This document shows positions 2,321 through 60,148 of a DNA stretch of 64,000 nucleotides, piece by piece (within the stretch, counting starts at the first letter, position 1; every line of letters starts with the position of its first letter). This stretch comes from Oligoflexia bacterium (GTDB lineage Bacteria; Bdellovibrionota; UBA1018). The notes beneath the pieces were generated by a model. That model searched no databases, was not told the origin of the DNA, and saw only the letters and a list, made by a program, of their open reading frames with translations. Location of the stretch: assembly GCA_014378465.1 (NCBI GenBank), contig JACMNQ010000021.1, positions 4,898-68,897 of the forward strand. The letters run 5' to 3'. The translations under genes were made by a program, and so were the position numbers.

Positions 2321-2339
2321 GAAAAACTCACCTGAAAAG

Positions 2340-3110
2340 TCACTTCTTTTCCCGTCTCAGGAACACCGAAAGCTTTTCCTGAAGAAAGAAGGGGTTGATG
2401 CCTTCCTGAATTCCGATCACACCCTGCTTGATCACTTCACGCGAAACGGTATTCTGCTGCGCACGCCTCTTGAGCTTGGTGCCGATCGGGATGAGAATGA
2501 GATTGGACAGTGCGACTCCGTAAACGGTCGCGACGAATGCGACCGCGATCCCTTCTCCGATTTTCGCCGGCTCATTGAGCAGAGTCATCACGTGAATCAG
2601 GCCCAGCACGGCGCCGATGATGCCGATGGTAGGCGCGTAGCCTCCCGCCGCTTCGAAAACCTTCGCGGCCTGGACATCTTTTTCGTAGCCAAGCTCAATT
2701 TCGGCATCGATGATTTCGCGGATTGCATTGGCATCAAAACCGTCCACCACATGCTTGAGGCATTTTTTGAGCAGAGGATCAGAAACCTTGGAAATCTGAG
2801 AATCTACCGCCAAAAGGCCTTCTTTTCGGGCGACAGTGGCGATTTCTCCGATCTCAGAAACGAGAGTGTCACACTGAACCATCTCCTGTCTGAAGACACT
2901 GGGAATGGATCTGAAGGCATGCATCACTTCTTCCATGGGAAAGGAAACCAGGACAGCACCGAGAGTTCCGCCGAGCACGATCAGCGCTGCAGTCCCCTGA
3001 AGAATCTGACCCAGGGTTCCACCTTCGAGTAATTGTCCGCCCAGTACCGCAGCGACTCCGATGACGAGTCCAAGAATAGACGCCAGATCGATCATAGGAT
3101 TTCCCTGCAT
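2340..3110 (-). CDS. motA: Flagellar motor stator protein MotA
   Basis: Motifs AALIVLGGTLGA, ARKEGLLA, GGYAPTIGIIGAVLGLI and AFVATVYGV. Directly upstream of motB. Confidence 0.93.
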   Translation of the reverse strand: MQGNPMIDLASILGLVIGVAAVLGGQLLEGGTLGQILQGTAALIVLGGTLGAVLVSFPMEEVMHAFRSIPSVFRQEMVQCDTLVSEIGEIATVARKEGLLAVDSQISKVSDPLLKKCLKHVVDGFDANAIREIIDAEIELGYEKDVQAAKVFEAAGGYAPTIGIIGAVLGLIHVMTLLNEPAKIGEGIAVAFVATVYGVALSNLILIPIGTKLKRRAQQNTVSREVIKQGVIGIQEGINPFFLQEKLSVFLRREKK

Positions 3111-3156
3111 AGAGATTTAGTGTAACCTCAAAAGGATACGGAGCACTAGGTGTCAA

Positions 3157-5934: not shown

Positions 5935-5939
5935 ACGGA

Positions 5940-44541: not shown

Positions 44542-45000
44542 TCATGACGCCTTCTCGTACCGGGCTTTTCGCTTGGCAACGTACTGTTGATGATGCGCCT
44601 CGGCCCGGTAGAACGGCACCGCTGGCACGACCGAGGTCCACTGCCGGGTGGGCTGCCGCGCTCTCGAGCGGATCGCCAAACGCTCCTGATCTGGCGTATG
44701 AAAGAAGATCACGGATCGGTATTGATAACTCGAATCGTGATCCGATCGGTGAGTCGCGCGCGGGTCATGGATCTCCCAGAATTTCTCGAGGAGTTCTTCG
44801 TAACTGACGACTTTTGGATCGAAGAGGACTTCGACGGTCTCGGCATGCCCGGTATTTCCGGTGCAAACCTCTGAATAGCGCGGGTTGCTCGTCGTTCCTC
44901 CCGAATAGCCCACGGCAGTTTCGACCACGCCCTTCAGATTTCGAAACGAGTCTTCGACTCCCCAAAAACAGCCGGCTCCCAAAGTAAATTTTTCGGTCAT
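44542..45000 (-). CDS. msrA: Peptide methionine sulfoxide reductase MsrA
   Basis: Motifs GAGCFWGVE, VGYSGG..NPRYSEVCTG.TGHAE, QYRSVIF and FYRAEAHHQQY. ATG at 45000. Confidence 0.93.
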   Translation of the reverse strand: MTEKFTLGAGCFWGVEDSFRNLKGVVETAVGYSGGTTSNPRYSEVCTGNTGHAETVEVLFDPKVVSYEELLEKFWEIHDPRATHRSDHDSSYQYRSVIFFHTPDQERLAIRSRARQPTRQWTSVVPAVPFYRAEAHHQQYVAKRKARYEKAS

Positions 45001-45568
45001 GACAGCCTCCCTCCTTCGCCTGTGGTGCAATCCGGAGACCCTTTGCCGCCGTATCATTCTCGATATTCACGTCATGGTCACGATTAGCCCGGCTGATGCC
45101 GCGATCGAAACAATCGATTGGCCTCATCACTCCTGCCATGAAAGATCAGGCTCACGACGCGAGGCCGCTTCCAGCAGTTGTCGGGCGCTCTCGTGGAACT
45201 TGGGCGTGACGAGGTTTCGTTCTTCCCGGTTCACTCAGCAACCACGGAGATCGTATTCAAAAGGCCCTCGAGTCCAGCCTCGCCCGCGTTTTCTCCTCTC
45301 GAACTGGAGATCACGACACTGAATGCCGAGCACGAACCCAAAATCGACAGGTACTCGGCTTAGTGCAGCCGCTTTCCTGAAATTCAGGTCAAGCCGATGA
45401 AATGCGGCAAGGATCAGAAACTCTGCTACGGCGACTGCAGGCCGATCGACCGGGGATGTGGCCATCACCGCTGAAAACGCAGAGCGGCAATTGCGCCAGA
45501 CTGCTTGGAGAACACCTCTCGAGACTCCCCTCGCCTTATCTCAGCTCGTCTGATAGCTTGAACTCACT

Positions 45569-45926
45569 GGGGACGTCACGGCTTCGACGGGAGTCTTGAT
45601 GCCTTGGATGCATGTCGTGGTTCGTCGAAGGCCACGTAAAAATCGACGAAATGTAATTGGCAACGATTACGCAATGGCTGCTTAATAGTTAACTCTATTT
45701 AAGTACCACGGTCTACCCGAAGGCTCCCATCGTTCGGAATAGTCCGTCATTGAATGGGATAGGTTCCTGGTTCTCGCAGATGGCCAGGGAGCGAAACTAA
45801 AGTCTGCGGAGGGTGAGAACAGGTTGTCTGTAGTCGTTTCTCACTTAATCCAAACTACAGAATACGCATGTAGATTCTAAGGTTGATGTCTTTCGGACGA
45901 GGGTTCGACTCCCTCCGTCTCCACCA
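45569..45926 (+). ncRNA. ssrA: tmRNA
   Basis: The 5' end GGGGACGtcacggcTTCGAC pairs with the 3' CGTCTCC-A-CCA (G3-U70). T-arm GAGGG-TTCGACT-CCCTC. Internal tag ORF ends in Ala-Ala. Length 358 nt. Confidence 0.95.
45659..45685 (+). other. tmRNA proteolysis tag reading frame (A)GNDYAMAA*
   Basis: GGC AAC GAT TAC GCA ATG GCT GCT TAA, followed by TAG. Confidence 0.85.
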
Positions 45927-45931
45927 ATATC

Positions 45932-45971
45932 AAAAAAGGGTCCCCTTCTTCACGGAAGGGGGCCCTTTTTT
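45932..45971 (+). terminator. ssrA terminator
   Basis: Hairpin aaaaaagggtccccttc-ttcacg-gaagggggccctttttt. Confidence 0.85.
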
Positions 45972-46077
45972 GATTTTAATTGGGGAGCGAAGGATCGTCG
46001 AGAGCTCCGTGTTCCGCTTCGCGGCCACTCGCTCACGCGTCACATGAAAACTCTTTCAGAGTTTTTCTGCGCTCGCG

Positions 46078-46094
46078 TCCCTCCGTCTCCACCA
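46078..46094 (+). repeat. ssrA 3'-end copy 1 (att-like)
   Basis: tccctccgtctccacca, 17/17 identical to 45910-45926. Followed by the hairpin ggggttgaaga/tcttcagcccc and a T tract. Confidence 0.9.
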
Positions 46095-46398
46095 AATTGG
46101 AGGGGTTGAAGAGTAAAATCTTCAGCCCCTTTCTTTTTCAATAATAAAAACAAACTAGCTCACAGGGGTTCTTTTAGGTCACTTAGCCATTCCACTCCAA
46201 ATCACGCAAAATAACCCCACTTGTTGTGCGTTGCAGTAATCGGCTGTAGTAAGCCACCCGGTTACTACGTTCATTTCTAAGTATGTAGATTTTAAACCGG
46301 CTAAGTGTTGGAATGGCCGCTATGAGACCCCGTAGCCCTCTCCTGGTTTAGATCAACCAGCGGAGGCCACCCACGCGGTCCGCGCTAAAAGAAATCAG

Positions 46399-46459
46399 GT
46401 GTCGTCGTCTGTCTGGGAATGACTCCCCGGAAAGTGTCGTCGCTTATGTGGGAATGACC
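46399..46459 (+). repeat. Two bipartite direct repeats GTGTCGTCG-N6-TGGGAATGAC, period 35 bp
   Basis: Copies start at 46399 and 46434; 19/19 conserved positions are identical. Confidence 0.7.
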
Positions 46460-46498
46460 CTAGCTAAACTGCCGTCGAGTTGGTGGGACGGAAAACTT

Positions 46499-49400
46499 TT
46501 AATGCCGGAGTAAAAGTGGAAGCTCAATAATGAACTTCGTTCCCTTCCCTTCTTCACTCTCTACCCGAATATTTCCCTGATGGCCGGTCACAATCTGTTT
46601 GACGATGTAGAGGCCAAGCCCAAGACCACTGACGTGGCGCGAAACATTCGCGCGCTCAAAGCGCTCAAATATTTTTTCCTGACACTCTTTGAGAATGCCG
46701 GGACCAAAATCCTGAACAACGAGTACAGCGGTCGCACCCTCAACCGAGACCCGAATTTGAATCGAATGGCCGGGTGCATACTTAATGGCGTTAGAGATCA
46801 AATTGACGATGACCTGCTCGATACGCGCTGGGTCCCAGCGAACGACTAGGTTCGGGGTGACTTCAACTTGAACCGAACACTCTGCCCGCTCAAGCTGTTC
46901 GGAAAAGTGGAGGACCGCCTCCCGGATAACTGCTTCCACGTTCATCGTCTGGAAACTGAAGGCCAGAATTCCAGCCTGAATTTGAGCGACATCGAGTAAG
47001 TTTTCTACCAAACCGGCCAAGCGATCGGTCGCCTCTATCGACTTGTCAATCAGCTTTTCAGAGGAGGAAGCTTGGCCGAGTTCTGTTTGGATTCGTTTTT
47101 TTGCCAGCTGGAGTTGTAAAATCAATGCAGTAATAGGGTTCTTAAACTCATGAGACGCGATCGCCATGAACTCATCACGAGAGTGAAGTGCTTCTTGGAG
47201 CTTGGATGTCAGTCTTTCCATCTCCCTGCGCGCCGTCACCTGCTCGGTCACTTCATAACCGAAGATCAGGACCGCTTCGGTTTCTCCGGCTAAGTCTTTC
47301 ATCGGTTCAACTACAAAGGAGAAGTACCCTTTTCTCTCTTGGCGTCCGAGACGGTCGAGTGTCGCTTCATATTCGTTTGCGACGAAAGACTGTCCCGTAC
47401 GATAAACCTTCTCGAAAATAAGATGGGTTTCTTCTTCCATCTCTGGCAGAGCTTCGCGTAACGACTTGCCTATGATGGAATCTTCTTTACCGATCAGCGC
47501 AAGGTATCGAGAATTGGCAATATCGAAGGTGAGTTTTTCGCCCTTGAGTAAAGCTACGGCAGCAGGCGCTTGCATAAAAACGTTGTAAATGTTTTCTCGC
47601 TGAAAATTTGACTCCGCACGAAGCCTTCCAATTTCAAGATGGGTCATTACGCGGGCTATGAGTTCTTTGGCAGAAAATGGTTTTATAAGATAATCATCAG
47701 CGCCCGTTTCCAAGCCTTCAATGCGTGACTCTTCGCCTGCTCGGGCCGAGAGTAGGATACAAGGTATTCCTTTTGTTTTTGGATTCTCCCTGAGTCGTTT
47801 GACTAACTCCAAGCCGTCCATCTTGGGCATCATGACATCACTGAGAATAAGATCAGGCGCATGATGGTTAGCCGAAATCAGGGCAGCTTCTCCATCCCCT
47901 ACCGCCTCGATATCGCAATGAGGTTGGAGCAGGTTCTTCACATAGCCGCGCATGTCGGAATTATCATCGGCGATGAGGATTCTCGCACGTTTCTTACCTT
48001 TGATAAACGCATCGAAACTCACTGGACTCGTCTGCGAGTCCGGGAGCCACCTCAGCGCTTCCTCTACAAACTCGGCACCCTGGGCTTCAATGGCCTCCCC
48101 CTCTTTGGCGCTCCCTAAGAGGTCAGCGGGTAAATGTTCTTTGCCGAGTGGAATTTCAACCGTGAACTCGGACCCCGTCCCTAACTCGCTTCGTACTGAG
48201 TTCGTGCCCCCATGAAGCTTTACGAGCTCCTGAGTCAGCGCAAGCCCGATGCCCGAGCCCTCATGGGTTCGCCCTTGTGCCCCTTCTACTCGGTGAAAGC
48301 GTTCAAAGAGGTGGGGAATTTCGGTAGCGGGAACGCCGACGCCCGTGTCTCGAACACTGAGGCGGGCCCATCCATTGGCTTGAGTCAACCTGACTTCGAT
48401 CTCCCCGTGGAGGGTAAACTTAAAGGCATTTGAAAGAAGATTAAGAACGACCTTTTCCCACATTTCACGGTCGACATAGACCGATTCGTGTAGACCAGAA
48501 GTTTCGACGATCAGCTTGAGACCCGCTTTTTCTATAGCTGCGCGAAACATTCCCGAAAGTTCGACGGTCAGTTTTGAAAGATCTGTCGGCCGGAATACCG
48601 CTTTCATGCGGCCGGCCTCAATGCGGGAAAAATCCAGGAGCGAATTGACTAACTTGAGAAGCCTTCGTGCGTTCCGGTAGGCAAGCTCATCTCGCACTCT
48701 ATGCTCCGGCCCCAGGGAAAGATTGGGATGAGCCAAGTTGTCTTCCAGCGGCCCGAGCATCAGCGTAAGCGGCGTACGAAACTCGTGCGAAACATTTGAA
48801 AAAAATGCAGTTTTAGCACGATCAATCTCCGCTAAAGCCTCGGCCCTTTTTTTTTCTTGCGCGTAGGCCCGCACGTTGGTGAACGCGGTGTTGACCGCAT
48901 TTCCCAAGGACTCATAGAAACTCAGGTAGTCGGCGTCGAAGGCACGTCGCGCACTGACGCCCGCTACCAGGAAGCCAAAAGGGTGATCAACGCCCGAAAT
49001 TAAAATGGGTAGAATAACGGCTTCCCGGAGCGCTTCGGGATAGGGCTCGCAAATCAGCGGACCCCATAAGCGCTCGAGGTCACTTACGAACTTCATTTTC
49101 TTGGCACGAGCTACTTCCGCGAGTGGCCAGGTTTGCTGACTCTCATTTTCAAGGTCAATCGAATCGGGCGTACTTGTGGTTCCACTCGGCAGTCCGACAC
49201 TTTTAATCAGGCGGGCGCTTTTTCCAGATTCATCCAGTTGGTAAATGAGGAAGAACGGCAGGTCGAGATTACTGGCCCCGTGGGTCTTCTCGGCAAAATC
49301 GACGATTTCAGTCTCAGTCTGGGCTTTGGCGATTTGGGTGGAAAAGTCACGAACGGCTTGAGTCCGCCTTGAACTCAGCATCCGGTTGGTGGTTTCGGTA

Positions 49401-49894
49401 ATCGGGTGGAAAAGTCCGCCGACTTCCCCCGACTCGTCACGAATCGGACTGAAGGAGAACGTCATGAACGCTTCTTCCAAATAGCCATCCCGATCGAGGA
49501 ACATGCGCTGGTTCTCGATGTAGGAACCTTTGCCAGACCAGGCCCGTGCAAAAATTTCGCCTACTACGGGCAGCGCCGTAGCCCAGCAATCATTGAATCT
49601 CTGACCCATGGCCTGTGGGTGTTTGGCACCGCAGATCGGTCGATAGCTGTCGTTGTAGATCTGAACGTTCTCCGGTCCCCAAGTGATGAGGATAGGAAAG
49701 GTCGAAGAGAGGCACAAGCTTACCGTGGTACGCAAGCTCTGGGGCCACAGTTCGACCGGCCCGAGAGGAGTCTTGCCCCAATCCAGAGAGCGGATCAGCG
49801 CCCCCATTTCGCCGCCCCCCGAAAGAGCGTCGTACTTAGCTGAATCAGGGTCTCTCGAGGCTGGGACGGCGCTAGTAATTTCCTTAATTTTCAT
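46499..49894 (-). CDS. Hybrid sensor histidine kinase (PAS/GAF-HisKA-HATPase-REC-PAS-HisKA-HATPase)
   Basis: Two H-boxes (VSHEFRTPL, ASHEFKNPI), two ATPase domains (NLLSNAFKF/DTGVG/GSGIGL and NLISNAIKY/DFGPG/GLGLGL) and a receiver domain (IADDN..SDVMMPKMDG..KPF). Confidence 0.93.
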   Translation of the reverse strand: MKIKEITSAVPASRDPDSAKYDALSGGGEMGALIRSLDWGKTPLGPVELWPQSLRTTVSLCLSSTFPILITWGPENVQIYNDSYRPICGAKHPQAMGQRFNDCWATALPVVGEIFARAWSGKGSYIENQRMFLDRDGYLEEAFMTFSFSPIRDESGEVGGLFHPITETTNRMLSSRRTQAVRDFSTQIAKAQTETEIVDFAEKTHGASNLDLPFFLIYQLDESGKSARLIKSVGLPSGTTSTPDSIDLENESQQTWPLAEVARAKKMKFVSDLERLWGPLICEPYPEALREAVILPILISGVDHPFGFLVAGVSARRAFDADYLSFYESLGNAVNTAFTNVRAYAQEKKRAEALAEIDRAKTAFFSNVSHEFRTPLTLMLGPLEDNLAHPNLSLGPEHRVRDELAYRNARRLLKLVNSLLDFSRIEAGRMKAVFRPTDLSKLTVELSGMFRAAIEKAGLKLIVETSGLHESVYVDREMWEKVVLNLLSNAFKFTLHGEIEVRLTQANGWARLSVRDTGVGVPATEIPHLFERFHRVEGAQGRTHEGSGIGLALTQELVKLHGGTNSVRSELGTGSEFTVEIPLGKEHLPADLLGSAKEGEAIEAQGAEFVEEALRWLPDSQTSPVSFDAFIKGKKRARILIADDNSDMRGYVKNLLQPHCDIEAVGDGEAALISANHHAPDLILSDVMMPKMDGLELVKRLRENPKTKGIPCILLSARAGEESRIEGLETGADDYLIKPFSAKELIARVMTHLEIGRLRAESNFQRENIYNVFMQAPAAVALLKGEKLTFDIANSRYLALIGKEDSIIGKSLREALPEMEEETHLIFEKVYRTGQSFVANEYEATLDRLGRQERKGYFSFVVEPMKDLAGETEAVLIFGYEVTEQVTARREMERLTSKLQEALHSRDEFMAIASHEFKNPITALILQLQLAKKRIQTELGQASSSEKLIDKSIEATDRLAGLVENLLDVAQIQAGILAFSFQTMNVEAVIREAVLHFSEQLERAECSVQVEVTPNLVVRWDPARIEQVIVNLISNAIKYAPGHSIQIRVSVEGATAVLVVQDFGPGILKECQEKIFERFERANVSRHVSGLGLGLYIVKQIVTGHQGNIRVESEEGKGTKFIIELPLLLRH

Positions 49895-50161
49895 ATTTAA
49901 AATATGGTCGTCAGCGGCTCGCGAGTTTTAGACCCAAGTGGAGCCTGTAAACACTTAGGGCAAAGAAAGCGAGGTTTAAATACCGAACCTATCAAGTCTT
50001 CTATTGCAGCGCCGTATCCGGGTTGCGCCAGAATGGGACTTTTATCTGATGTCTTCGTCAAAGACTACTCATAGATCGGCAGGAAGCGCCTCGCCTTCTC
50101 GTTTTGACCAAGTCTCAGCTTCTCTTGGATTGGGAATCGCGTTGCCTGGAAAAGATTCCCA

Positions 50162-50235
50162 TGGCCGATTTCACGCGAGCTGACCCCTACGTTTTCACTC
50201 AACTGACCCCTGCTCTTTTCACTTGAGTTGACCCC
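50162..50235 (+). mobile_element. Orphan IS21-type terminal repeat
   Basis: TGGCCGATTtCAcgcGAGCTGACCC plus two internal TTCACT..A.TGACCC repeats, similar to the element end at 50488. Confidence 0.7.
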
Positions 50236-50487
50236 AGGAAGATTTCAAGAAAGATGTCGCATTTATTTTTTAGGCAGCCTGAACTCTTAACTTTTGATCA
50301 TCTGATTTGATTTCTTTTCGAGGGTTGAGCCTGACTTCCGTGATCATCGACCAGTTGCGCGTCTGCCTGGACCAGCGAGAGGGATTGGAGAGCTTTGCAG
50401 CCTGATAGATTTCGTGCCGACGTCTCAAGATTTCAGTATCTTTGCCGTTATGGCGTGACTCGGGCGTTACAAAACGGAATCCACTAT
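50236..50487 (-). pseudogene. IS3-family transposase C-terminal remnant with its right end
   Basis: SGFRFVTPESRHNG..EILRRRHEIYQAAK..NPSRWS..TRNWS...LNP is an IS3-type C-terminus. It is cut off at the IS21 left end. Confidence 0.7.
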
Positions 50488-50676
50488 TGGCCGATTGCAG
50501 TTGAGCTGACCCGGGCAATTGCAATGAATTGACCCACCCCGATTTCACTTGAGTTGACCCAGGCGATTTCACTGAACTGACCCAGCCAATATCAGTGAAA
50601 TGACCCACTAGTTTTGGTCAGGTTTTCGGGTGCTTTTGAAGCTAGTGTCGATCATCTCAAAGGGGACCCCTGAAAG

Positions 50677-52155
50677 ATGATTGGCAGCAGAAAGAGCACC
50701 GCAGTGAGAAGTGAGATTTTTAGATTAAAACACGCAGGCCACGGGCACCGAAAGATTGCCCAGATCCTAGGGATTTCAAGAAATACGGTCAAAGGGATCC
50801 TGAAGTCCGGAGATGGGCCCGGTCGTGTGGAGAAGCCCTTGCCCGAGACCCGGGTCTGGAGTGATGAGGTGGCCTGGGATGAGGTCCGCAGTGAGCTCAC
50901 CAAGCGCTACGTGACGATCAAGCAGCTGGCGGCTGAATACGCCCCTGAGGGCGTTGATTACATCCGCTTCTGGAGGGAGCTCAGGCGACGCACTCCGGTC
51001 GACGTCATCAGTCAGGTGCGCATCAAGATGCAGCACGAGCCCGGAAGCCGCTTTGAGGGAGATTACTGTGACGGTATTGTGATCACGGACCGGAAAACCG
51101 GGAGAACGAAAAAGACGCAGCTCTTTGCAACCGCGAGTTCATTTAATGATTACAAATACGCCGAATTCACCATGGCCCAGACCAAATGCGAATTCATCGC
51201 GTCCCAAGACCGGATGTTTCATTTCTTTGGCGGGCTGCCAGTCTATTACGTGATCGACAATCTGAAGAGTGGCGTCAGCCGGGCGCACCGCTATGATCCG
51301 GACCTGAATCCTTCATACTGTGATTACGCCAATCACATGGGATTTTCCGTACTGCCGGCAAGACCCGTCACCCCAAGAGACAAGCCCGCCATTGAAGGCG
51401 CAATTGGCGTCACCCAGAGACAATTTTATTCGGAAGTGAGAAACCGGGTATTCTATTCAGTCACCGAACTCAATGACTGTCTTCGGAAATACATCACGCG
51501 CCTGAACGCTTCAGAAATGAAGGACTACGGGACAACCAGAGCCGCGCGCTTCGAAACTGAAAGGCCGCTACTGAAAGCACTTCCTCAAGAAGCCTACGAG
51601 ATGAGTGAGTACCGAAGCTCAAAAGTTCATCCGGATTGCCATATCCAGGTGGACCGAAATTTTTACTCAGTCCCGTACCGCTTCATCTCTCAAAGCATGC
51701 GCGTGAAGCTCTCGGTCAGAACCATTGAGATCTATAGCGAGGACCACGAGCTTGTCGCCATTCATGCGAGAAAATTAGGAAAACGAAACTTCTCCACCCA
51801 CGACGCCCACTATCCGGAACAAAAAATCGCCGCGGCAAGATTTGATATCTTGGCACTCAAAAAAGAGGCTGCCCGGATCGGACCCGAGATGGATGCCGTG
51901 AATGGTGAACTCCTGGCGGGAGTGTCGCCGCTTCGGTACCTGAGGCGCGCACAGGGAATCTTGCGGCTGTCAAAAACGCTACCGTCAAGTGCGCTTGAGT
52001 ACGGCTGCAAGCAGGCAAGGCTCTTTGGTCGCCTGAGGCTTCAGTACATCACTGACTGCGCGACCAGGTTCCATAGAAATGGGACCAGGCCCGTGCTGGT
52101 TAGGGAAGCCCCCGCTCGCGAGCGCTCTCAGATCTATCTCCATGAACAACCCTGA
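50677..52155 (+). CDS. istA: IS21 transposase IstA
   Basis: N-terminal HTH (KIAQILGISRNTVK), HEPG..EGDY, YVIDNLKSGV, DKPAIEG and DRNFYSVPY. Confidence 0.92.
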   Translation: MIGSRKSTAVRSEIFRLKHAGHGHRKIAQILGISRNTVKGILKSGDGPGRVEKPLPETRVWSDEVAWDEVRSELTKRYVTIKQLAAEYAPEGVDYIRFWRELRRRTPVDVISQVRIKMQHEPGSRFEGDYCDGIVITDRKTGRTKKTQLFATASSFNDYKYAEFTMAQTKCEFIASQDRMFHFFGGLPVYYVIDNLKSGVSRAHRYDPDLNPSYCDYANHMGFSVLPARPVTPRDKPAIEGAIGVTQRQFYSEVRNRVFYSVTELNDCLRKYITRLNASEMKDYGTTRAARFETERPLLKALPQEAYEMSEYRSSKVHPDCHIQVDRNFYSVPYRFISQSMRVKLSVRTIEIYSEDHELVAIHARKLGKRNFSTHDAHYPEQKIAAARFDILALKKEAARIGPEMDAVNGELLAGVSPLRYLRRAQGILRLSKTLPSSALEYGCKQARLFGRLRLQYITDCATRFHRNGTRPVLVREAPARERSQIYLHEQP

Positions 52156-52197
52156 ATCCGAAAACCCTGAAATGACCCTACGAAAGAGAAGTAAAAA

Positions 52198-52943
52198 ATG
52201 TCATCATCTCCATCATCATCAATCCCCATGATCCAGAGCATGCGGCAGATATCCCATGAACTGAGACTCTTTGGAGTCCACGAAGGGCTCGAGCGCAGGT
52301 CTGAGGAATCCCTTCACTCAGGGCTCAGCCCACTTGAGTACCTGAGACTCGTGCTTGAAGACGAGCGACTCCATCGCCGCCAGAGAACGGCAAAAATGCT
52401 TCAAACCCGGGCCAAGTTCCGATCTGGCGCCGAGCTTGAGGACTGGGACCACGCAGTCGATCGGGGGCTCAGTAAACCGCAGTTCAAGGATCTGGCAAGC
52501 CTGGGGTTTAAAACGTGATTATTGTCGGACCCACAGGGACCGGGAAGACACATCTGGCGACCGCTCTCGGAAAAAAACTCTGTCGTGAAAGTGTAGGAGT
52601 ACAGTTCTTCTCGCTCAATCTTTTTCTGGAGGAGTGTCAGGCCGAGAAATCCTCGGGTCGTTATCTCAACTTCATCAAACGCACAAAAAACGTCGCAGTT
52701 TTGATCTTAGATGACTTCGGACTTCGGAACTACTCGCACGATGAAGCAGTGATTATCGTCGACCTGCTTGAAGAAAGATATTAACACGGGTCTGTCATCA
52801 TCACGTCCAGGGTTGACCCAAAGGGCTGGCACAAACTCTTTGAAGATCCAGTGATTGCCGAGGCCGCAATCGACCGGATGAAAAATCCCAGCATGCAAAT
52901 CATTCTCAAAGGGAGTTCCTACCGAGAGCGCCTGAAAAAATAG
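52198..52943 (+). pseudogene. istB: IS21 helper ATPase IstB, disrupted
   Basis: Frameshift near 52510 just before Walker A (GPTGTGKT). In-frame TAA at 52782-52784 after LLEERY, then HGSVIITS...KGSSYR continues to TAG at 52943. Confidence 0.88.
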
Positions 52944-53079
52944 GATTGAACTGACAAGAATAACGCAGTAGCAGATCCAGCAAATAACAGCCGCATCATC
53001 GGCACCCATCCCCCTGGGTCAGTTGAGTGAAATAGGGTGGGTCAACTCAACTGCAATCGGCCACCCGAAGCGCGAGGAG

Positions 53080-53105
53080 TCGACTCCCACGGTCGGTCGC
53101 CACCA
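53080..53105 (+). repeat. ssrA 3'-end copy 2 (degenerate)
   Basis: tcgactcccacggtcggtcgccacca: three substitutions plus a ggtc duplication relative to the native end. Followed by the hairpin aaaaaggccgatt..aatcggcccttttg. Confidence 0.65.
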
Positions 53106-53205
53106 AGATCAAAAAGGCCGATTGAGCACTCAGTGTTTAATCGGCCCTTTTGATTTTATGCAATCGATATCGAAACTCGCAAGCCCCGCCCGATCAAATT
53201 TGGTC

Positions 53206-53342
53206 GAACAGTAATGCCAGAACGTGATCAGCGTTTTGCTCCTTCAGCAGGGAGCCGAGAGGGAGACTGAGGGGGCACCAGCTATGCTAGTCGCGAAGGA
53301 GCCCAGCCTGCAGCCGAAGCGGGATAGCGCTGAGAGCGAAAG
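53206..53342 (+). repeat. Structured repeat type A, copy 1
   Basis: Collinear with 53618-53756 (GAACAGTAA.GCCA.AACG...GCGTTTTGCTCC...ACTGAG..GG.ACCAGCTA.GCT.GTCGCGAAGGAGCCC..CCTGCAGCCGA.GCG.GA.AGCGC.GAGAGCG). Confidence 0.85.
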
Positions 53343-53344
53343 GC

Positions 53345-53363
53345 ACTCCCTCCGTCTCCACCA
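53345..53363 (+). repeat. ssrA 3'-end copy 3
   Basis: actccctccgtctccacca, 19/19 identical to 45908-45926. Followed by the hairpin aaaaatccca..tgggattttt. Confidence 0.9.
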
Positions 53364-53548
53364 TAAAAATCCCAGGTGACACGTAAGTGTTAGTTGGGAT
53401 TTTTATTTGTGCGGACTTGAGGGAGGCAAACCGTGGAGGAGCGACCTCGCAGACTCCGAGGGAGTCTGCGAGGAGAGTCGCGCAGGACGCGCGAATCAGC
53501 GACGACGCCGCGACGGAGGTTTTTCCTGGAAGGCAAAAGCGCGAGGAG

Positions 53549-53570
53549 TCGACTGCCTCCGTCTCCACCA
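53549..53570 (+). repeat. ssrA 3'-end copy 4
   Basis: tcgactgcctccgtctccacca, 21/22 identical to 45905-45926. Preceded by a type B element containing a 13-bp perfect hairpin at 53445-53473. Confidence 0.9.
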
Positions 53571-53617
53571 AAAATTAAAAGGACTGCTCCGAAAGAAGCT
53601 GCCTTTTTTATTTTGTG

Positions 53618-53756
53618 GAACAGTAACGCCAAAACGCAGTCGGCGTTTTGCTCCTCCCAGGCTAGACTCGAAAGGCGGACTGAGAGGGTACCAGCTACGC
53701 TGGTCGCGAAGGAGCCCGTCCTGCAGCCGAGGCGCGACAGCGCCGAGAGCGGAAAG
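53618..53756 (+). repeat. Structured repeat type A, copy 2
   Basis: See copy 1. Contains stems AAAACGC/GCGTTTT, ACCAGC/GCTGGT and GGCGC/GCGCC. Confidence 0.85.
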
Positions 53757-53803
53757 ATCAACGCTCAGGCACATGCCATTGCGGGAGGTCAATTTCACAG
53801 ACA

Positions 53804-55603
53804 CTAAGCAGCCTTTTTGTGCCTATAGCCTTGATTGAGGTGATTTCTAAAAAGCTCGTTCATCCACCCGTGGCTCTTGGCCGCATCATATGCTTTGGGA
53901 TCTCGCTTCATAAAATCACGACGATTCCTGCAAAATCGAACAATCTCCTGACATTTCTCAAACGTCCAGTAAGCATTCGGTGCGGCCTTTGGAAGGTAGC
54001 CTTCATTTGGATGCCTTCTGAAAAGATCATTGAGCCAGCCCCTGCGATGGGCAGCCGCGAAAGCACCGGGCTGGTGTAGTTCTAGTTCTTTTCTTGTTTT
54101 CACTTTCGAAACGAACTCAGAGACTCGCTCAAAGGTCCAAAAACCTGGCGGTATACTCTTGAAGCCTTGGTTTGGATGCATGGCAAACAGGTGATCAAGC
54201 AGTCTTCTCCGGACAGCCCCTTCGTAAGCGCCGGCATGCTTCATCTTGAATTCGCTCCTGGTCGCGCATTGCTTTACCAGGGCGCTGAGTTGGTCATAGT
54301 CCCATTCCGCATTCTTCCGGTACCCATGGCCTGCATGGTTTTCAAAGAGTTCGTCAAGCCAGTGATTTTTAACGGCTGCCGCGTGGGCCCCCGGGAACCG
54401 CTCCTTGAATTCCTTTCGATCCGTACACTGCTTGGCGGCAGCCTGGCATGCCGCCAAGCTCCAAGTGCCGTTTTTTTTCTTGATCAAGCCTTGATGAGGA
54501 TGATCTTTGAATATCCGATCCAGAAGCTTCTGATTTGCAGCCGCTTGATACGCATTTGGATGTTTTTTTAAGAACTCGTTGCGACTCTCGCAAACCATGG
54601 CCAGCTCGTGCAATTTATCTTCAGTCCAAAACCCAGTGTCCACCCGAAGTTTTCCTTGATTCGGCAGCGACGAGAATATTTCCTCCAGCCATCCGTTATG
54701 AATTGCAGAATTGTAACCGCCTCCGAAATTCTTTTGGAATGCTCGCCTGGAGCCGCATTTCAGAGCAACTCTCCTACATTCTTCCTTGTTCCAACGATCA
54801 ATACCCTTTCCAACTGCACCACCGCCATCCGCATTTGCCATAATCCAGCCATCGGTGCGGAATTTTTTGATCTGATCTTTTTCAAGGGCTGCGGCGCAGC
54901 TTTCATCTAGTGGTCCCGATATTCGTGTCAACACTGCCCCATCTTCGATCAACTTCCGAACGACAGCCGATCCCGACCTGCGATGTTCCTCGAATCTCTC
55001 TTCTGGATCGTGCGAAAGCCCTACGTAAATGCGCTTTTCACTCGCGAGCGCGATCGTGTAGACATAGCGTGTATAGAGACTCCCCAGCGAACGCATATGC
55101 GCTGAAAAATCATCAATCCAGCCGTTTCTCAGGGCACTTGAATAGGCGCTGGAGTATTTCTTTCTGAACTCGTTTTTTGACTTGCACTCAAGTGCAGCCT
55201 TGCGGCAATTCTCTTTATCCTGCCAGTGACCCCGTGCAACTCTTCCCTCTTCAAAGCCACGATTGGGATGGTCTTCAAATAATAGATCGATCACGCCATT
55301 TTGGTGCGCACGGCTATAGGCATTTGGATTTGTTTTTGCCATCTGGCCACGGGTAGCAAATCCAGCCGCAATCCTCTTGAGGTCTGAGATTGACTCTTCC
55401 TTTGAAGTAAACTTCGCTATTCGGTTGCCCCCGTTGGTGTGGTTGCAGAAGATTTCCTGAAGCCAACCTGCACGGTAGGCGGCTCTAAAGGCCTGGTAGT
55501 GATCGGTTCGCATCTGCTTTTGGTCAACACAAGCATTTGCGATTGTTTGACATTTCTCCTTCGTCCATGCCGGCAGCTGAGAACTTTTTTTATGCGAGGC
55601 CAT
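53804..55603 (-). CDS. GIY-YIG nuclease embedded in nine ~55-aa helical tandem repeats
   Basis: YVY-x10-IYVG..DPEERFEEH...LEKDQI..ANADGGG nuclease core. Repeat consensus W(T/S)xExC..A..C..RxEF...xAY..A...GWLDELF..HxNxG, with 3 copies before and 6 after the nuclease. Confidence 0.8.
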   Translation of the reverse strand: MASHKKSSQLPAWTKEKCQTIANACVDQKQMRTDHYQAFRAAYRAGWLQEIFCNHTNGGNRIAKFTSKEESISDLKRIAAGFATRGQMAKTNPNAYSRAHQNGVIDLLFEDHPNRGFEEGRVARGHWQDKENCRKAALECKSKNEFRKKYSSAYSSALRNGWIDDFSAHMRSLGSLYTRYVYTIALASEKRIYVGLSHDPEERFEEHRRSGSAVVRKLIEDGAVLTRISGPLDESCAAALEKDQIKKFRTDGWIMANADGGGAVGKGIDRWNKEECRRVALKCGSRRAFQKNFGGGYNSAIHNGWLEEIFSSLPNQGKLRVDTGFWTEDKLHELAMVCESRNEFLKKHPNAYQAAANQKLLDRIFKDHPHQGLIKKKNGTWSLAACQAAAKQCTDRKEFKERFPGAHAAAVKNHWLDELFENHAGHGYRKNAEWDYDQLSALVKQCATRSEFKMKHAGAYEGAVRRRLLDHLFAMHPNQGFKSIPPGFWTFERVSEFVSKVKTRKELELHQPGAFAAAHRRGWLNDLFRRHPNEGYLPKAAPNAYWTFEKCQEIVRFCRNRRDFMKRDPKAYDAAKSHGWMNELFRNHLNQGYRHKKAA

Positions 55604-55784
55604 AGCGATGTATCGGAATGGGTGCGCGGAAAATCAAGCGGCTTAATAATCATTGAGTCGCTTGAGGTCTCTCATGCAATGTAGCTAATTGACGATCTAC
55701 GTCTTCAAGGACATACACCCGTTCTGAACAACTCTCTCTTTCTCCTCAGAAGCTGCCACCGAACCACTCCCTACGGAAAATGGT

Positions 55785-56747
55785 TTACGCCGCCTCCAGC
55801 TTAATCTTCAGATTCATCATCCATTCAGTCATGAGCCTGATCACTTGCTCATGATTGGGACCTCCGGGCACTACAGCGTAAACTTCGACTTCAGGCAACC
55901 CCGGAACATCGGGTGCGAGTAAGTCTCTGCCGTCAAAAGCTACGCCCAGATACTCGGCAGCGATAAAGCCCGCGCCCCGGATAGGCGCCACTCCAAAGCT
56001 CCGAACCTTTCCTTTCCCGTCCCATTTGAGCGTATCCGTCCGGTCCTCATGAGGCACGGAGCGAAAAAGCTGAACTGCGGCTCGAGTTGCGATCGAAGCG
56101 CCGTCCTGCCTAGCAAGTCCTGCGACGAGGTACTTGAAAGCGATCTTTGCTTCCCCCAGCTCCAACGCTCTCTCAGAGAGCATCGCCGCGTGGGTAGCGC
56201 TTTCTGCAGCGCCCTCAGCACTCAATTCTGACAACGTCATTTTGGCGACTCGCCCGTTCAGTGACAACAACTCTTGAACTCTGAGTGCAGGGTTGAATGA
56301 TTCTGTATCCGGCGTCCACTCGTGCCTGAGGATCCACGAACAGATCCCGATCAAGGCTTCACTATCAAGGGGCAGCGCCAGAGGTACATTCGAGTACAGG
56401 TCCTGTGAACGAATCTGTTTTGAAGCGGCCCAGGCCAGGTCCATCTCGGCCTTTCTTCTGCGCGCCACAAGGCCCAAAATCTCAAAGAAGGCCGCACCTC
56501 GGTAGCCGCCCTTTCTGAATTCTCGTGCTTCGGTCACAGCCCCCACCCATTCGCCCTCTGTGATCTTCCTGATCAGGGATTTGGGAGAACGAATATCGGA
56601 GGTTGTAACTGGAGTCACAAGAGACACAGGCGCGCAGGCCTCGGGTAAGAGTTTTAACTTCATTCTCAAAGTTTGCTGCCCAACGGTGACATCCCGGGAC
56701 CCGCTCTCATGGCCGACGAAGATCCGATGCCTGACCTTATCTGACAA
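55785..56747 (-). CDS. Hypothetical protein
   Basis: 320-aa ORF divergent from the DUF2779 gene. No motif recognised. Confidence 0.6.
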   Translation of the reverse strand: MSDKVRHRIFVGHESGSRDVTVGQQTLRMKLKLLPEACAPVSLVTPVTTSDIRSPKSLIRKITEGEWVGAVTEAREFRKGGYRGAAFFEILGLVARRRKAEMDLAWAASKQIRSQDLYSNVPLALPLDSEALIGICSWILRHEWTPDTESFNPALRVQELLSLNGRVAKMTLSELSAEGAAESATHAAMLSERALELGEAKIAFKYLVAGLARQDGASIATRAAVQLFRSVPHEDRTDTLKWDGKGKVRSFGVAPIRGAGFIAAEYLGVAFDGRDLLAPDVPGLPEVEVYAVVPGGPNHEQVIRLMTEWMMNLKIKLEAA

Positions 56748-56914
56748 GGCCCTGGGGTAACTTCAAGAAGTCGGGATTTGGGATCCAAAGCGCAGTCATC
56801 CCAGTGACACCTCCACTTCGGAATAATCTTGAGTGGGCATTCCAATATGCCGATGAGCCACCCGTGAAGTTCACGGTTAATCGGCCCAGTTGTGGCCTGT
56901 GAAGGACCCCGCGC

Positions 56915-58948
56915 ATGTCGCCTCGCTATCTGACTAAGTCTCTCTTCAAAGTCGCCTATGAGTGCCCCACGAAGCTCTACTACCAAATCCATAAGGAGTA
57001 CGGCAACACGAAGGTCGACAATGCGTTTCTCAAAGCGCTGGCTGACGGAGGCTTTCAGGTCGGGGAGCTCGCCAAGATGTATTCGCCTGGCGGCATTGAG
57101 ATCACTGAAAAGAACTCGGACAAGGCCGCTGAGCAGACCGAGGTCCACCTCAAAAAAGAGAACGTCACTCTTTTCGAAGCGGCACTCAGGGTGGATGGTC
57201 TTCTGGTCAGAGTTGATATCCTTCACAAGCGCGGCAACTCCATTGAGCTGGTCGAAGTCAAAGCCAAGAGCTGGGATGACACCGAAGAAAGTGGCTTCTA
57301 CAAGAAAGCAGAACTTAAAAAAGGCATCCGGAAGATCCAGGGCGACTGGGAACCCTACCTCATGGATATCGCCTTTCAGACCTACGTCGCCAAGAAGGCA
57401 CTGCCTGGCTGCAAGATCTCAAGCTACCTCATGATGGCTGACAAGACGGCCAAGACCACTGTGGACGGCATCAACCAGAGATTTCTCATTGTCACTGACA
57501 ACAAGCAGACCGACGTGATCGTCCGAGAAGGCACCAAGCGTGACATGCTGGGAGACTCAGTCCTCATCAGCAAGTGCGTGGATGATGAAGTCGAAGTGCT
57601 CTTCAATGAGACATTTGATGAAGGTCGCACTTTTACTCAACTCGTCAATCACCTCCTCAACCTGATCGCTACGGATACGAAAGACGAACCCAAGATCTGC
57701 TCGAGCTGCAAACAGTGTGAGTTCAGGCTCCCGACTCAAGATATCACCCCCACCCACAACAGTGGATTTGAGGAATGTTGGCTCAAGGCCACCGGCTTAA
57801 GCCTTGAGAAACTGAGAACTCCCCTCGTCTTTGACCTTTGGGACAATCGCAAATCAAAAGACCTCATCGAGCAGAGAATCTACCTGATGACTGACATTCA
57901 GGAAGAGGACCTCGCCTCAAAAGCCAAGAGCAAAAAGAAAACGGATGAAGGGGACATTGATCCTACGGCGGGACTCACCCGGACCGCAAGACAGTGGCTC
58001 CAAGTCGAAAAGACTCAGAAGAATGACTTAACCCCCTATTTCGATCACATTGGCCTCAGAGAGGAAATGAGCTCCTGGACCTACCCACTGAACTTCATCG
58101 ATTTTGAGACCACGATGGTCGCCATCCCCTTTCATAAGGGCAAGCGTCCTTATGAGCAGCTTGCCTTTCAATTCTCTCACCACGTGATGACGGCCAATGG
58201 AAAGATCACCCACCAGAGTGAGTTCATCCACTTTGAGCAGGGAGCATTCCCCAACTTTGACTTTGTCCGGGCACTCAAGAAGGCGCTCACCACAAACGAT
58301 GGAACGATCTTTCGATTCGCCGCACACGAAAACACGGTTCTTGGGCAGATCATGAGGCAGCTTGAGGCGGCGGCCGATACCACTCCAGACCACCAAGAAC
58401 TCATCGACTGGATCAAAGAGATCACTCAGTCCTCAAAGGATGCTGACGTCTCCTGGGAAGGCAGCCGAAACATGATTGACCTCTGCGACCTGGTGAAGAA
58501 ATTCTACTATAGCCCACTCACCGGCGGATCAAACTCGATCAAGAAAGTACTGCCGGCCGTGCTGCGCGAATCTACCTATCTGCAAGACAAGTACAGCAAG
58601 CCCATCTATGGGACCGACATTCCCAGCAAGAACTTCAAAAACCACGCATGGATCAAAAAAGATTCCGAGGGCAAGATTCTAGACCCCTACAAGACCCTTG
58701 AGCCCATCTTCTCAGACCTAGACTTGAAGACCATGGACTCCCTGATCAAAGAGAACAGCCTTGCTGACGGCGGCGCTGCGATGACCGCCTTTGCGCGTAT
58801 GCAATTTACCGAGATGAGCGAGCTTGAGCGGCACCGCGTCTCCAAGGCGCTCCTTCGGTATTGCGAGCTGGATACTTTTGCGATGGTCATGATCGTGGAG
58901 TACTGGATAGACGTACTTAAGGCGCATGAAGGGAAAGATGCGGCATGA
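56915..58948 (+). CDS. DUF2779-type protein: Cas4/RecB-like PD-(D/E)xK nuclease fused to an RNase H-fold (DEDD-like) exonuclease
   Basis: LTKSLF..AYECPTKLYY, RVDIL..LVEVKAKS, CSSCKQCEF, FIDFETT..PYEQLAFQFSHH, MIDL, SIKKVLP and LLRYCELDT. Confidence 0.8.
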   Translation: MSPRYLTKSLFKVAYECPTKLYYQIHKEYGNTKVDNAFLKALADGGFQVGELAKMYSPGGIEITEKNSDKAAEQTEVHLKKENVTLFEAALRVDGLLVRVDILHKRGNSIELVEVKAKSWDDTEESGFYKKAELKKGIRKIQGDWEPYLMDIAFQTYVAKKALPGCKISSYLMMADKTAKTTVDGINQRFLIVTDNKQTDVIVREGTKRDMLGDSVLISKCVDDEVEVLFNETFDEGRTFTQLVNHLLNLIATDTKDEPKICSSCKQCEFRLPTQDITPTHNSGFEECWLKATGLSLEKLRTPLVFDLWDNRKSKDLIEQRIYLMTDIQEEDLASKAKSKKKTDEGDIDPTAGLTRTARQWLQVEKTQKNDLTPYFDHIGLREEMSSWTYPLNFIDFETTMVAIPFHKGKRPYEQLAFQFSHHVMTANGKITHQSEFIHFEQGAFPNFDFVRALKKALTTNDGTIFRFAAHENTVLGQIMRQLEAAADTTPDHQELIDWIKEITQSSKDADVSWEGSRNMIDLCDLVKKFYYSPLTGGSNSIKKVLPAVLRESTYLQDKYSKPIYGTDIPSKNFKNHAWIKKDSEGKILDPYKTLEPIFSDLDLKTMDSLIKENSLADGGAAMTAFARMQFTEMSELERHRVSKALLRYCELDTFAMVMIVEYWIDVLKAHEGKDAA

Positions 58949-59958
58949 CGTCAATTCAAGAGACTCGAAGTGGTGAGGACTGGTCGGAGGACGAGATTTC
59001 AGCATCGGTGGTGGCATATTTTTCTCTCATGCAAATGATCATATCCGATCAGCCCGCAAAGAAGGCTCAAATATACCGACAACTCTCCCAACAATATCCA
59101 GCTCGTACTCCAAAAGCGTTTGAAGCAAAATTCCAAAATATAAGTGCGGTACTCTTCGAAATGGGCCGTGCGTTTATCCCTGGGCTCAAGCCGAGAAAGA
59201 ACTATCAAAATTGCCTTTTTAAGGCCGTGACTGAATATCTGGGCAAATCTGCACTTCAAGTGTGTGAGCCCATACCTAGAGACAGGCTTTTTGACGAGCT
59301 GAGGCGGCTTACAAAGCAAGGCTTTATACCAGTGAAGGGCAAAGGGACCGGAAGATTTGGACTCACTCTCGAACACTACCTAAACATTCCACAGAACTGC
59401 AGCAAAAATCCTGACTATTTTGGCATCGAACTAAAGACAAAACGAAAAGGCAAACTGCAAACACTTTTTTCTAGAAAGCCTACAAGATACCACGCTTGCG
59501 TCGATAGGTCTGGGCTCCTCTTTAATTTTGGTTACCCTCATAAGAAGCGAAAAAATGATTTCGCTTTGCGCACTTCATTTAACGTTTTACCGAATACCCT
59601 TGGATTTAATTTGAATGTGCGAAACAAATTATTCGAAGTAATCAAAAATAATTCAGCAATCCTCGATTTCTCTCACGCTAGTATAGAACAGACTCTATTA
59701 GCGAAGCATTTTGAAACGGTGTACATCAAAGTTCTGGCTCGCAAAACTCAAAGACGCCAGGAAGAGTGTCGTTTCGATGGCGCGGTCTACTACTCAACGC
59801 CGTCACTCGACCGGTTTATTAAGCTGGCCAGAGAAGGAAGCGTTTACTTGGACTTTACTCTGAGTTCCAACGAAGGGACCGTCAAAGACCACGGTTTTCT
59901 GTGGAGAATTCTTAATGATAAACTCATTTCGCTCTACGAAAGCTCAATTGTTATCTAG
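58945..59958 (+). CDS. MvaI/BcnI-family restriction-endonuclease-like protein with an extra N-terminal helical domain
   Basis: GTGRFGLTLEHYLNI..N.SKNPDYFGIELKTKR...TLFSRKP...KDHGFLWR. N-terminus WSEDEI..SV.AYF...KFQNISAVL..PGLKPRKNYQ. ATGA overlap with the upstream gene. Visibly more AT-rich than its neighbours. Confidence 0.75.
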   Translation: MTSIQETRSGEDWSEDEISASVVAYFSLMQMIISDQPAKKAQIYRQLSQQYPARTPKAFEAKFQNISAVLFEMGRAFIPGLKPRKNYQNCLFKAVTEYLGKSALQVCEPIPRDRLFDELRRLTKQGFIPVKGKGTGRFGLTLEHYLNIPQNCSKNPDYFGIELKTKRKGKLQTLFSRKPTRYHACVDRSGLLFNFGYPHKKRKNDFALRTSFNVLPNTLGFNLNVRNKLFEVIKNNSAILDFSHASIEQTLLAKHFETVYIKVLARKTQRRQEECRFDGAVYYSTPSLDRFIKLAREGSVYLDFTLSSNEGTVKDHGFLWRILNDKLISLYESSIVI

Positions 59959-60148
59959 AAAATGGGATTTTCGTCACCGGATGCATTACTCTCCCTCCTG
60001 AGGGGAGGACCGCGAAACATTCCTCGTCAAGTAAATCCGCTCAAAACTAGTAGCATTGTCCCTCCCTGTCAACCGACCCGCTTATATTCATGCAAGCTCC
60101 TCATCGATGGTTTTACTTCCGAGTTTGACTCGGGTTAGGGTGACTTGC

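Follow-up and report, generated by a model that had tools for sequence, protein, structure and literature searches.

The ssrA locus and its displaced 3' ends

The transfer-messenger RNA (tmRNA) gene, ssrA, of an Oligoflexia bacterium from a glacier metagenome is followed by an array of displaced copies of its own 3' end, between which lie short, gene-less layers. We analyzed a stretch of 64,000 nucleotides (nt) around this gene, hereafter the window (contig JACMNQ010000021.1, positions 4,898-68,897, forward strand), and all coordinates are positions within it (Table 1). A full-length tmRNA is regenerated at the locus (186.7 bits), RNA contigs identical to it occur in ice metatranscriptomes, and its tag, GNDYAMAA, is the same in many Bdellovibrionota metagenome-assembled genomes (MAGs). 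We fetched 229 loci, to which L-numbers refer. The window's tmRNA is nearest to that of an Oligoflexia MAG (L113, 79% identity), while that of a Bacteriovoracaceae MAG (L145) is 73% identical; a related metagenome contig (L229) also figures below.

Downstream of ssrA are four extra copies of the final 16-22 nt of the tmRNA, all in the same orientation, and a fifth displaced copy was looked for up to position 64000 and not found. An earlier note on this DNA, made from the sequence alone, had counted four copies besides the native end, and sequence matches bore this out. Likeness to ssrA ends at the CCA in every copy and begins in the T loop or at its edge in copies 1, 3, and 4; in copy 4, tmRNA likeness reaches back through the T arm, with 26 of 29 positions matching. 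Copy 2 carries a GGTC duplication that is missing from an independent assembly of the same sample, and matches the tmRNA at 13 of 16 positions once the duplication is set aside. Each of the five tmRNA ends has a hairpin and a T run behind it, as the earlier note had also described. Four of these hairpins are strong (z-scores of -4.9 to -8.6) and the last is weak (z-score of -1.2). Terminators 0, 2, 3, and 4 are flanked on either side by A and T runs, and terminator 0 can work both ways because its hairpin lies between an A run and a T run.

The distances between successive ends define the layers of the array. From the end of ssrA to copy 1 there are 152 nt, comprising terminator 0 and a unit that we call C. 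Copy 2 and copy 3 are 265 nt apart (start to start), with terminator 2, a 40-nt spacer, and unit A1 between them, and the 204 nt from copy 3 to copy 4 hold terminator 3 and unit B. These three layers (152, 265, and 204 bp end to end) thus consist solely of a terminator and a GC-rich module of 100-150 nt. The remaining layer, between copies 1 and 2, spans about 7 kb and contains terminator 1, some 200 nt resembling L229, a histidine kinase gene, a solitary end and a complete copy of the insertion sequence (IS) IS21, and a fragment of a second B unit. Beyond copy 4 come terminator 4, unit A2, and then the gene of a GIY-YIG protein. The three unit types lie at the places first proposed for them (C, 45975-46077; A1, 53198-53344; B, 53406-53554), and the expectation that they encode nothing held, with no plausible open reading frame (ORF) or domain in the three cassettes at 45927-46094, 53106-53363, and 53364-53570. 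All four window cassettes have the same layout of tmRNA end, hairpin, T run, and a TTGGTGGAGAC-like motif.

Table 1. Features of the ssrA array and its surroundings, in window coordinates
Feature	Position	Strand	Evidence
tmRNA gene ssrA, intact	45569-45926	+	ARAGORN; Rfam RF00023 full length, 186.7 bits vs threshold 47
Terminator 0, 20-bp hairpin, A run and T run at flanks	45929-45974	+	dG -34.7 kcal/mol, z -7.7; called on both strands
Unit C, non-coding, strongly folded	45975-46078	+	fold z -4 to -5
Copy 1 of tmRNA 3' end, CCCTCCGTCTCCACCA	46079-46094	+	16 nt, exact
Island-type left end, also directly behind ssrA in L229	46098-46310	+	nhmmer E 3.4e-08 to L229:703-905
Terminator 1	46099-46142	+	dG -22.6 kcal/mol, z -4.9; called by terminator scan
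Hybrid histidine kinase gene	46499-49894	-	Pfam HATPase_c, HisKA, Response_reg, PAS, GAF
Solitary IS21-type end, 326 bp left of complete IS21	50162-50234	+	repeat families D2, D4, I3
IS21-family insertion sequence, complete	50488-53063	+	terminal inverted repeats I1, I2; Pfam Mu-transpos_C_2, IstB_IS21
B fragment, final 18-22 nt of second B unit	53064-53085	+	18-mer identical to 53537-53554
Copy 2 of tmRNA 3' end, diverged, polymorphic GGTC duplication	53086-53105	+	sequence match, independent-assembly comparison
Terminator 2	53108-53156	+	dG -29.1 kcal/mol, z -8.6; called by terminator scan
Unit A1	53198-53344	+	84% identical to A2
Copy 3 of tmRNA 3' end, ACTCCCTCCGTCTCCACCA	53345-53363	+	19 nt, exact
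Terminator 3, resembles L113 ssrA terminator	53364-53405	+	dG -24.0 kcal/mol, z -8.6; alignment with L113
Unit B, ends T-arm-like, running into copy 4	53406-53554	+	nhmmer, covariance model, covariation
Copy 4 of tmRNA 3' end, GCCTCCGTCTCCACCA	53555-53570	+	16 nt, one mismatch
Terminator 4, weak or decayed hairpin and T run	53571-53614	+	dG -9.3 kcal/mol, z -1.2
Unit A2, shortened, no tmRNA end after it, abuts defence island	53610-53758	+	nhmmer 167.5 bits (A profile); repeat families D1, D7

Both A and B are present twice in the array, and the two copies of each part company in the T loop. Two copies of the 18-mer AAGCGCGAGGAGTCGACT are present, one at 53068-53085, where it abuts the right inverted repeat of IS21, and one at 53537-53554. 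As the earlier note had proposed, only the end of a unit survives before copy 2, the second B unit having been cut by the IS21 insertion. The B end and the B fragment share these 18 nt up to the T loop and then lose their likeness, continuing into different 3' ends and unrelated terminators, so that the claim of a junction within the T loop was also upheld. A1 and A2 separate between GGCAC and T, which is the T-loop position, and the likeness of A2 to A1 stops about 10 nt short of where A1 meets its tmRNA copy. Site-specific recombination in the T loop of ssrA very probably gave rise to the array. Tandem duplication of a block comprising the B end, terminator, and A was considered and rejected, as the sequences enclosed by the homologous flanks, 3' copies and terminators alike, show no relationship.

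Independent contigs from the same sample (Logan assembly) span 45000-46454 and 50249-56000 unbroken and at single-copy depth, equal to that of the genome. Therefore, the array is not an assembly artefact and its units are not dispersed repeats. No further copies of the units were found elsewhere in the 64 kb, nor was a target duplication of the kind left by miniature inverted-repeat transposable elements (MITEs) seen; together with the depth and the unbroken contigs, this led us to reject dispersed small repeats, whether MITEs or repetitive extragenic palindromes (REP/REPIN). The Logan assembly differs from the window at 53090, where the four bases GGTC are missing, and at 53158 and 53161 in the spacer after terminator 2. 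The two versions of this non-functional sequence differ either because the population varies or because the assemblies do. Two other glacier metagenome sequences bear on the locus. In one (X30), a tmRNA end with the sequence seen at window position 45926 is fused straight to sequence like 46158-46223 (7 differences in 66 positions), and the other (X28) combines a near-identical tmRNA and part of terminator 0 (45566-45960) with another upstream flank. Judging from these fragments, relatives with alternative arrangements of the ssrA locus exist.

Unit B in related genomes

The earlier note had suggested seeking the units in relatives, which succeeded for B. B lies directly after ssrA and in the same orientation in both L113 and L145 (nhmmer, 107-120 bits; covariance model, 125-138 bits), and neither method found another match in the approximately 230 loci. 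A looser pattern for B gave, besides L113 and L145, only chance GC-rich matches in genome contigs, one chance match in viral contigs, and none in metagenome contigs, and an exact scan of viral contigs for the B 18-mer returned nothing. B is present in three of the four loci of the clade that have at least ~3.5 kb of downstream sequence. The relatives L161, L093, and L229 have no B within the sequence available. Genes upstream and downstream of ssrA and B differ among the three genomes. The downstream genes are island-like, with an IS4 transposase and AbiE in L113 and a cytosine methylase in L145. An alignment shows that the L113 terminator and start of B resemble terminator 3 and the start of B in the window.

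The bodies of the three B units are 56-70% identical, as compared with 73-79% for the tmRNAs, and their fold has been retained. Paired positions make up 90.5% of the cells of the consensus fold. Across the three sequences, 14 pairs changed on both sides, versus 6.3 ± 1.8 in column shuffles (0 of 500 reached this number) and 1-4 when partners were slid. One hairpin of 12-13 bp occupies the same place with an entirely different sequence in each genome. The B covariance model did not detect any relationship of A or C to B.

Inverted copies of the tmRNA end

In L113 and L145, B opens with an exact 13-nt inverted copy of its own host's tmRNA end, including two T-stem bases that differ between the hosts. 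The inverted copy extends into the trailer, by 3 nt in L145 and over the whole terminator flank in L113. Both are extreme among 129 ssrA loci, where controls never exceeded 9 nt. At its other end, B in these two genomes closes with 10 nt that repeat the tmRNA end in direct orientation (GAGGGGTCTCCACCA). At L113:3183-3252, the tmRNA 3' end, terminator, and start of B together make up an almost perfect palindrome, whose arms measure about 31 nt and include one G-U position; this is long for a bacterial chromosome.

Inverted copies within the window are degenerate. We scored complementarity to the tmRNA end as duplex energy (in kcal/mol) relative to 500 dinucleotide shuffles. Unit C opens with TTGGGGAGCGAAGG (45980-45995). 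This sequence repeats the 3' end of the tmRNA in inverted and degenerate form, and its duplex with copy 1 is significant (-17.1 versus -10.7 ± 2.4 in shuffles, 7 of 500 as low). In A1, the inner arm GGGAGACTGAGGGGG (53261-53275), which begins 60 nt into the unit, shows complementarity to copy 3 that is again significant (-25.4 versus -16.6 ± 2.6, 4 of 500 as low), and A1 folds with copy 3 into a 13-bp helix with a free ACCA.

Other layers and neighboring genes

Copy 1, terminator 1, and the ~200 nt that follow have a homologue in L229, where it forms the end of an island next to ssrA. This homology shows a tmRNA-end copy, a terminator, and the following sequence moving together as the left end of one island type in the clade. 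The histidine kinase gene farther into this layer is either its cargo or a remnant. PAS/GAF histidine kinase genes adjoin ssrA both in the window (downstream, on the opposite strand, a hybrid with receiver) and in L145 (upstream, 1476-3983), a similarity that is at the domain level only. The complete IS21 encodes IstA (50677-52155) and an IstB whose frame is split (52198-52518 and 52515-52784). The solitary IS21-type end to its left suggests a second, mostly deleted IS21 copy and local rearrangement.

On the far side of the array, positions 53804-63744 carry genes resembling a defence island: a 599-amino-acid (aa) GIY-YIG protein (phrog_20046), a 320-aa protein without family, DUF2779, an MvaI/BcnI-type restriction endonuclease, an SbcD-like phosphoesterase, and an SMC/SbcC-like ATPase. 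Four bases are shared by the MvaI/BcnI gene and the DUF2779 gene upstream of it, and none of the ORFs scanned showed a methylase domain. Homologues of the GIY-YIG protein are at most 33% identical, and no related islands were found through them.

Whether the units are RNA genes

The earlier note had offered two readings of the units: non-autonomous mini-elements stacked at ssrA, or transcribed RNAs with tRNA-like CCA ends acting as tmRNA mimics or decoys. The first stands in outline, as a stack of ssrA-directed insertions, and the second does not. More broadly, the units could be small RNA genes, that is, structured RNAs of ~150 nt whose ends pair via the tmRNA-like 3' end, read from either strand. 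On the plus strand this would be a CCA-ending mimic. On the minus strand it would be an RNA convergent with ssrA, sharing its two-way terminator and bearing, in L113 and L145, the exact tail of the host's tmRNA. Both versions taken together seem improbable to us.

The covariation in B is what a structured RNA would produce, and several features agree with a minus-strand product. The minus-strand consensus of B folds at -52.7 kcal/mol versus -38.3 kcal/mol for the plus strand, and the minus-strand model contains 16 G-U versus 3 A-C cells, a count biased by the way the model was derived; the asymmetry is gone in a plus-strand model. The conserved fold of B suits the opposite strand at least as well, which counts against a tmRNA mimic. 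The A and T runs on both sides of terminators 0, 2, 3, and 4 point in the same direction, as does the two-way hairpin of L113, which on the minus strand is followed by the same 15 nt and trailer as the tmRNA. The helix of A1 and copy 3 with its free ACCA is a further point in favor of RNA genes.

Against RNA genes, a search of all units and both relatives with Rfam at E-values up to 10 found no family reaching its threshold, and ARAGORN detected no tRNA-like gene in the units. A scan for sigma-70-type promoters returned none on the strand of the units, and on both strands nothing promoter-like for them that exceeded chance. Four ice metatranscriptomes with contigs of this tmRNA contained no RNA contigs over the units, and RNA contigs placed on L113 end at the CCA; both results are weak evidence, because only contigs were available and the depth of the tmRNA was low (7-16). 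In B and C, the CCA is taken up into the closing helix. Alanyl-tRNA synthetase needs a G-U third pair (G3-U70), whereas the third pair read from the sequence is A-U, which therefore precludes alanine charging. With no promoter, Rfam match, or transcript found, the tmRNA-mimic idea is unsupported.

B also proved not to be a tmRNA derivative: as a decayed tmRNA, including its inverted copy, it aligned only over the 13-nt end and had no extended tmRNA likeness. A CsrA/RsmA-binding small RNA (RsmY) was discarded at 19.4 bits versus a threshold of 57, the GGA loop being missing in L113. Readings as a group II intron, a bridge RNA, or a Tn7 end, suggested by GTGCG at the start of B and by TG...CA ends, had no Rfam or protein support.

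Probable serial insertion at ssrA

The ssrA 3' end would be an insertion hot spot that at least five elements entered in succession. Each incoming element would have crossed over in or beside the T loop, bringing a replacement tmRNA 3' end with its own terminator, so that ssrA was kept intact and the older end and terminator were displaced outward. Serial insertion with element-borne ends explains why the direct repeats stop at the CCA and why each has its own hairpin. The canonical sublocations for crossover are the anticodon loop, T loop, and 3' end. Williams reportedly treated such sublocations in 2002 and is said to have described 'Traffic at the tmRNA gene' in 2003. The array is plausibly a chronological record of integration, as the earlier note had proposed; the most decayed tmRNA-end copy is not the outermost one.

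As to the short layers, we put the chances at about even that they are cargo-less, non-autonomous cassettes made up of the recombination-end modules of ssrA-specific elements. We infer an integrase, the order of events, and the mobility of the cassettes. They may have been moved in trans by an integrase encoded elsewhere, or may have been left when cargo exited via a secondary site at the module end. The fold is then read as site architecture rather than as a tmRNA-like RNA. In the relatives, the module comprises an inverted copy of the tmRNA 3' end at its start, a direct copy at its end, and conserved inner hairpins in between. Since it opens inverted and closes direct, a single strand of it can fold into a stem that rebuilds the duplex target site.

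Several results count against cargo-less cassettes. No integrase was found by Pfam among the long ORFs at 44.5-64 kb and about half of the ORFs at 33-44.5 kb, which agrees with the absence noted previously, nor among seven ORFs scanned with PHROGs, and the sole recombinase in the scanned ORFs was IstA of IS21. The Pfam-scanned flanks beside L113 and L145 also lacked one. A double-stranded circle of 152-265 bp would be very small for recombination by an arm-dependent integrase. We found neither presence/absence polymorphism nor an excised form in the fragmentary contigs and thin public data. A and C had no homologues by nhmmer over the 229 loci or in the phage and plasmid searches, the phage and plasmid collections gave no match to the units, and exact-pattern scans for A in genome contigs and viral contigs returned nothing. 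Complementarity of the window's B and A2 to the tmRNA end was no better than in shuffles. The covariation of B comes from three sequences only, and its divergence, being above that of the tmRNAs, would fit old vertical inheritance as well as mobility. Finally, protein-bound, double-stranded attachment (att) arms are not expected to keep hairpins by compensatory change. The retention of hairpins by compensation therefore points to a single-stranded form, either RNA or DNA, that a plain island model does not need.

One alternative is that the short layers are deletion scars, the leftovers of large islands after cargo loss, whose modules have neither function nor mobility. Signs of erosion are present: A2 borders a large defence island, IS21 has cut the B fragment amid further signs of rearrangement, and copy 2 and terminator 4 have decayed. 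Neither an integrase in the scanned ORFs nor polymorphism in the thin data was found, and hot spots of this kind commonly contain remnants and scattered partial tRNAs (10.1101/2020.12.28.424599). However, the position, orientation, and compensated fold of B are kept in three genomes whose tmRNAs are 21-27% different, which debris would not achieve. The gene-less layout of end, terminator, inverted copy, module, and end recurs for three unrelated module types as well as in the relatives, and random deletions are not expected to leave 100-150 nt each time. We regard scars as unlikely. The earlier note had named, as the outcome that would undo its proposal, units that lack homologues at other sites of this type and are eroded arms of large islands. 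B escapes this by its presence behind ssrA in L113 and L145, while erosion is partly right for A2 and the B fragment.

Another explanation takes B, and perhaps A and C, as an old and vertically inherited part of the ssrA locus, a resident cis-element that island traffic has duplicated and displaced. It could serve as a stem for 3'-end formation or processing, or as a barrier between ssrA and the variable region. B adjoins ssrA in all three genomes even though everything further downstream differs, and its divergence exceeds that of the tmRNA. The inverted copy follows each host's tmRNA over 13 nt and the trailer, which fits selection for pairing with the ssrA 3' end, and the similarity of terminator 3 and the start of B to their L113 counterparts is also in line with residence. 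A precedent for an ssrA terminator stem made from the CCACCA end itself is found in Bacillaceae. Yet the window's B has a displaced 3' end and terminator on its right, and another 3' end adjoins the second B end; this arrangement requires T-loop recombination and not mere displacement. The inverted copy lies beyond the T run, and therefore most ssrA transcripts would not include it. Moreover, the window's functional ssrA precedes C rather than B, and three related loci are without B in the sequence available. We consider a resident element to have a low probability.

The unexpected compensatory evolution of the hairpins keeps a further reading open, in which the modules are folded single-strand sites resembling integron attC or the attP of CTX phage, and a recombinase inserts tiny cassettes of terminator and site serially at ssrA. 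In a variant, the folded strand would be an RNA with a tmRNA-type tail. Even jointly, these two have only a slim chance of being correct.

Comparison with known systems

Insertion stacks at tmRNA and tRNA genes are textbook knowledge, and the array as such adds little to them. In Dehalococcoides, tandem ssrA islands have 3'-end repeats, and the idea of integrase-less, cis-mobilizable members has been put forward for them (PMC3146451). Among Prochlorococcus tycheposons, newcomers displace older elements outward and partial tRNAs are left behind (10.1101/2020.12.28.424599). The window resembles such tandem islands in its direct 3'-end repeats, the regeneration of the gene by element sequence, the element-borne terminators, the T-loop junctions, the apparent outward displacement of older elements by newer ones, and the presence of remnants and insertion sequences within the array. 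It differs in that three of its layers are gene-less and only 152-265 bp long, with no integrase among the ORFs scanned. Its modules also contain an inverted copy of the target end, and one module family keeps its fold across genomes.

In the cis-mobilizable elements (CIMEs) known from Streptococcus thermophilus, att sites lie on both sides and recombination and transfer genes are missing, and the elements occur in tandem with others at one attachment site, all of which is true of the window's cassettes. However, known CIMEs are kilobases long and carry genes, whereas a window cassette has little beyond its att site and terminator, and its mobilization is putative.

Integron attC sites and CTX phage attP are units bounded by inverted core copies, of which one strand folds into a duplex site. 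The likeness lies in units of ~60-150 nt with inverted core copies, arrayed in the same direction beside a fixed primary site. B alone is, like attC, an imperfect palindrome with a terminal inverted repeat and inner hairpins, in which structure is kept over sequence. In contrast to attC, there are no IntI or Xer-type motifs (no GTTRRRY and no dif), and the ends are TGGTGGAGAC ... GTCTCCACCA instead of the R''/R' core RYYYAAC ... GTTRRRY. Nor is there an integron integrase next to the array or upstream of ssrA in the ORFs scanned. The window also differs in having ssrA as its target and nothing but a terminator between units, and single-strand recombination is entirely conjectural here.

Small cassettes behind ssrA were also observed in unrelated taxa among the fetched loci. 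Two Bacillaceae species (L017:780-1000 and L076, minus strand, 3710-4080) have cassettes without genes, 169 and 318 nt in length, with a common right end of about 50 nt (GATATAGTCAGTGCCATGACGAAAGCATGGAA..), and their ssrA terminator stem is built from the CCACCA end (CCACCAAAT...ATTTGGTGG). A Holophagae MAG (L100, minus strand, ~3540-3790) has a 201-nt GC-rich cassette in which the terminator is followed by an 11-nt inverted copy of the tmRNA T loop and T stem (CGGTGGGAATC) and which ends in a 22-nt direct copy. Having both an inverted and a direct copy, it places this layout in another phylum as well. In a Bacteroidia MAG (L044, minus strand, 5120-6100), the cassette measures 833 nt and has two small ORFs. 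The direct repeats on either side of it exceed 100 nt and continue beyond the CCA to the far side of the terminator, a duplication of another style.

As far as we found, there is no published description of layers consisting of only a terminator and a small folded module. The same is true of B behind ssrA, with its compensatory changes and host-matched inverted end, in three Bdellovibrionota-like genomes that are distantly related to one another. Should the modules be no more than scars or an element for local processing, their interest would be local. If they are minimal non-autonomous integrative cassettes, they would represent a lower size limit of integrase parasitism and a compact att substrate. 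If it is true that they fold as single strands, recombination of the integron and CTX type would be extended to an RNA-gene target.

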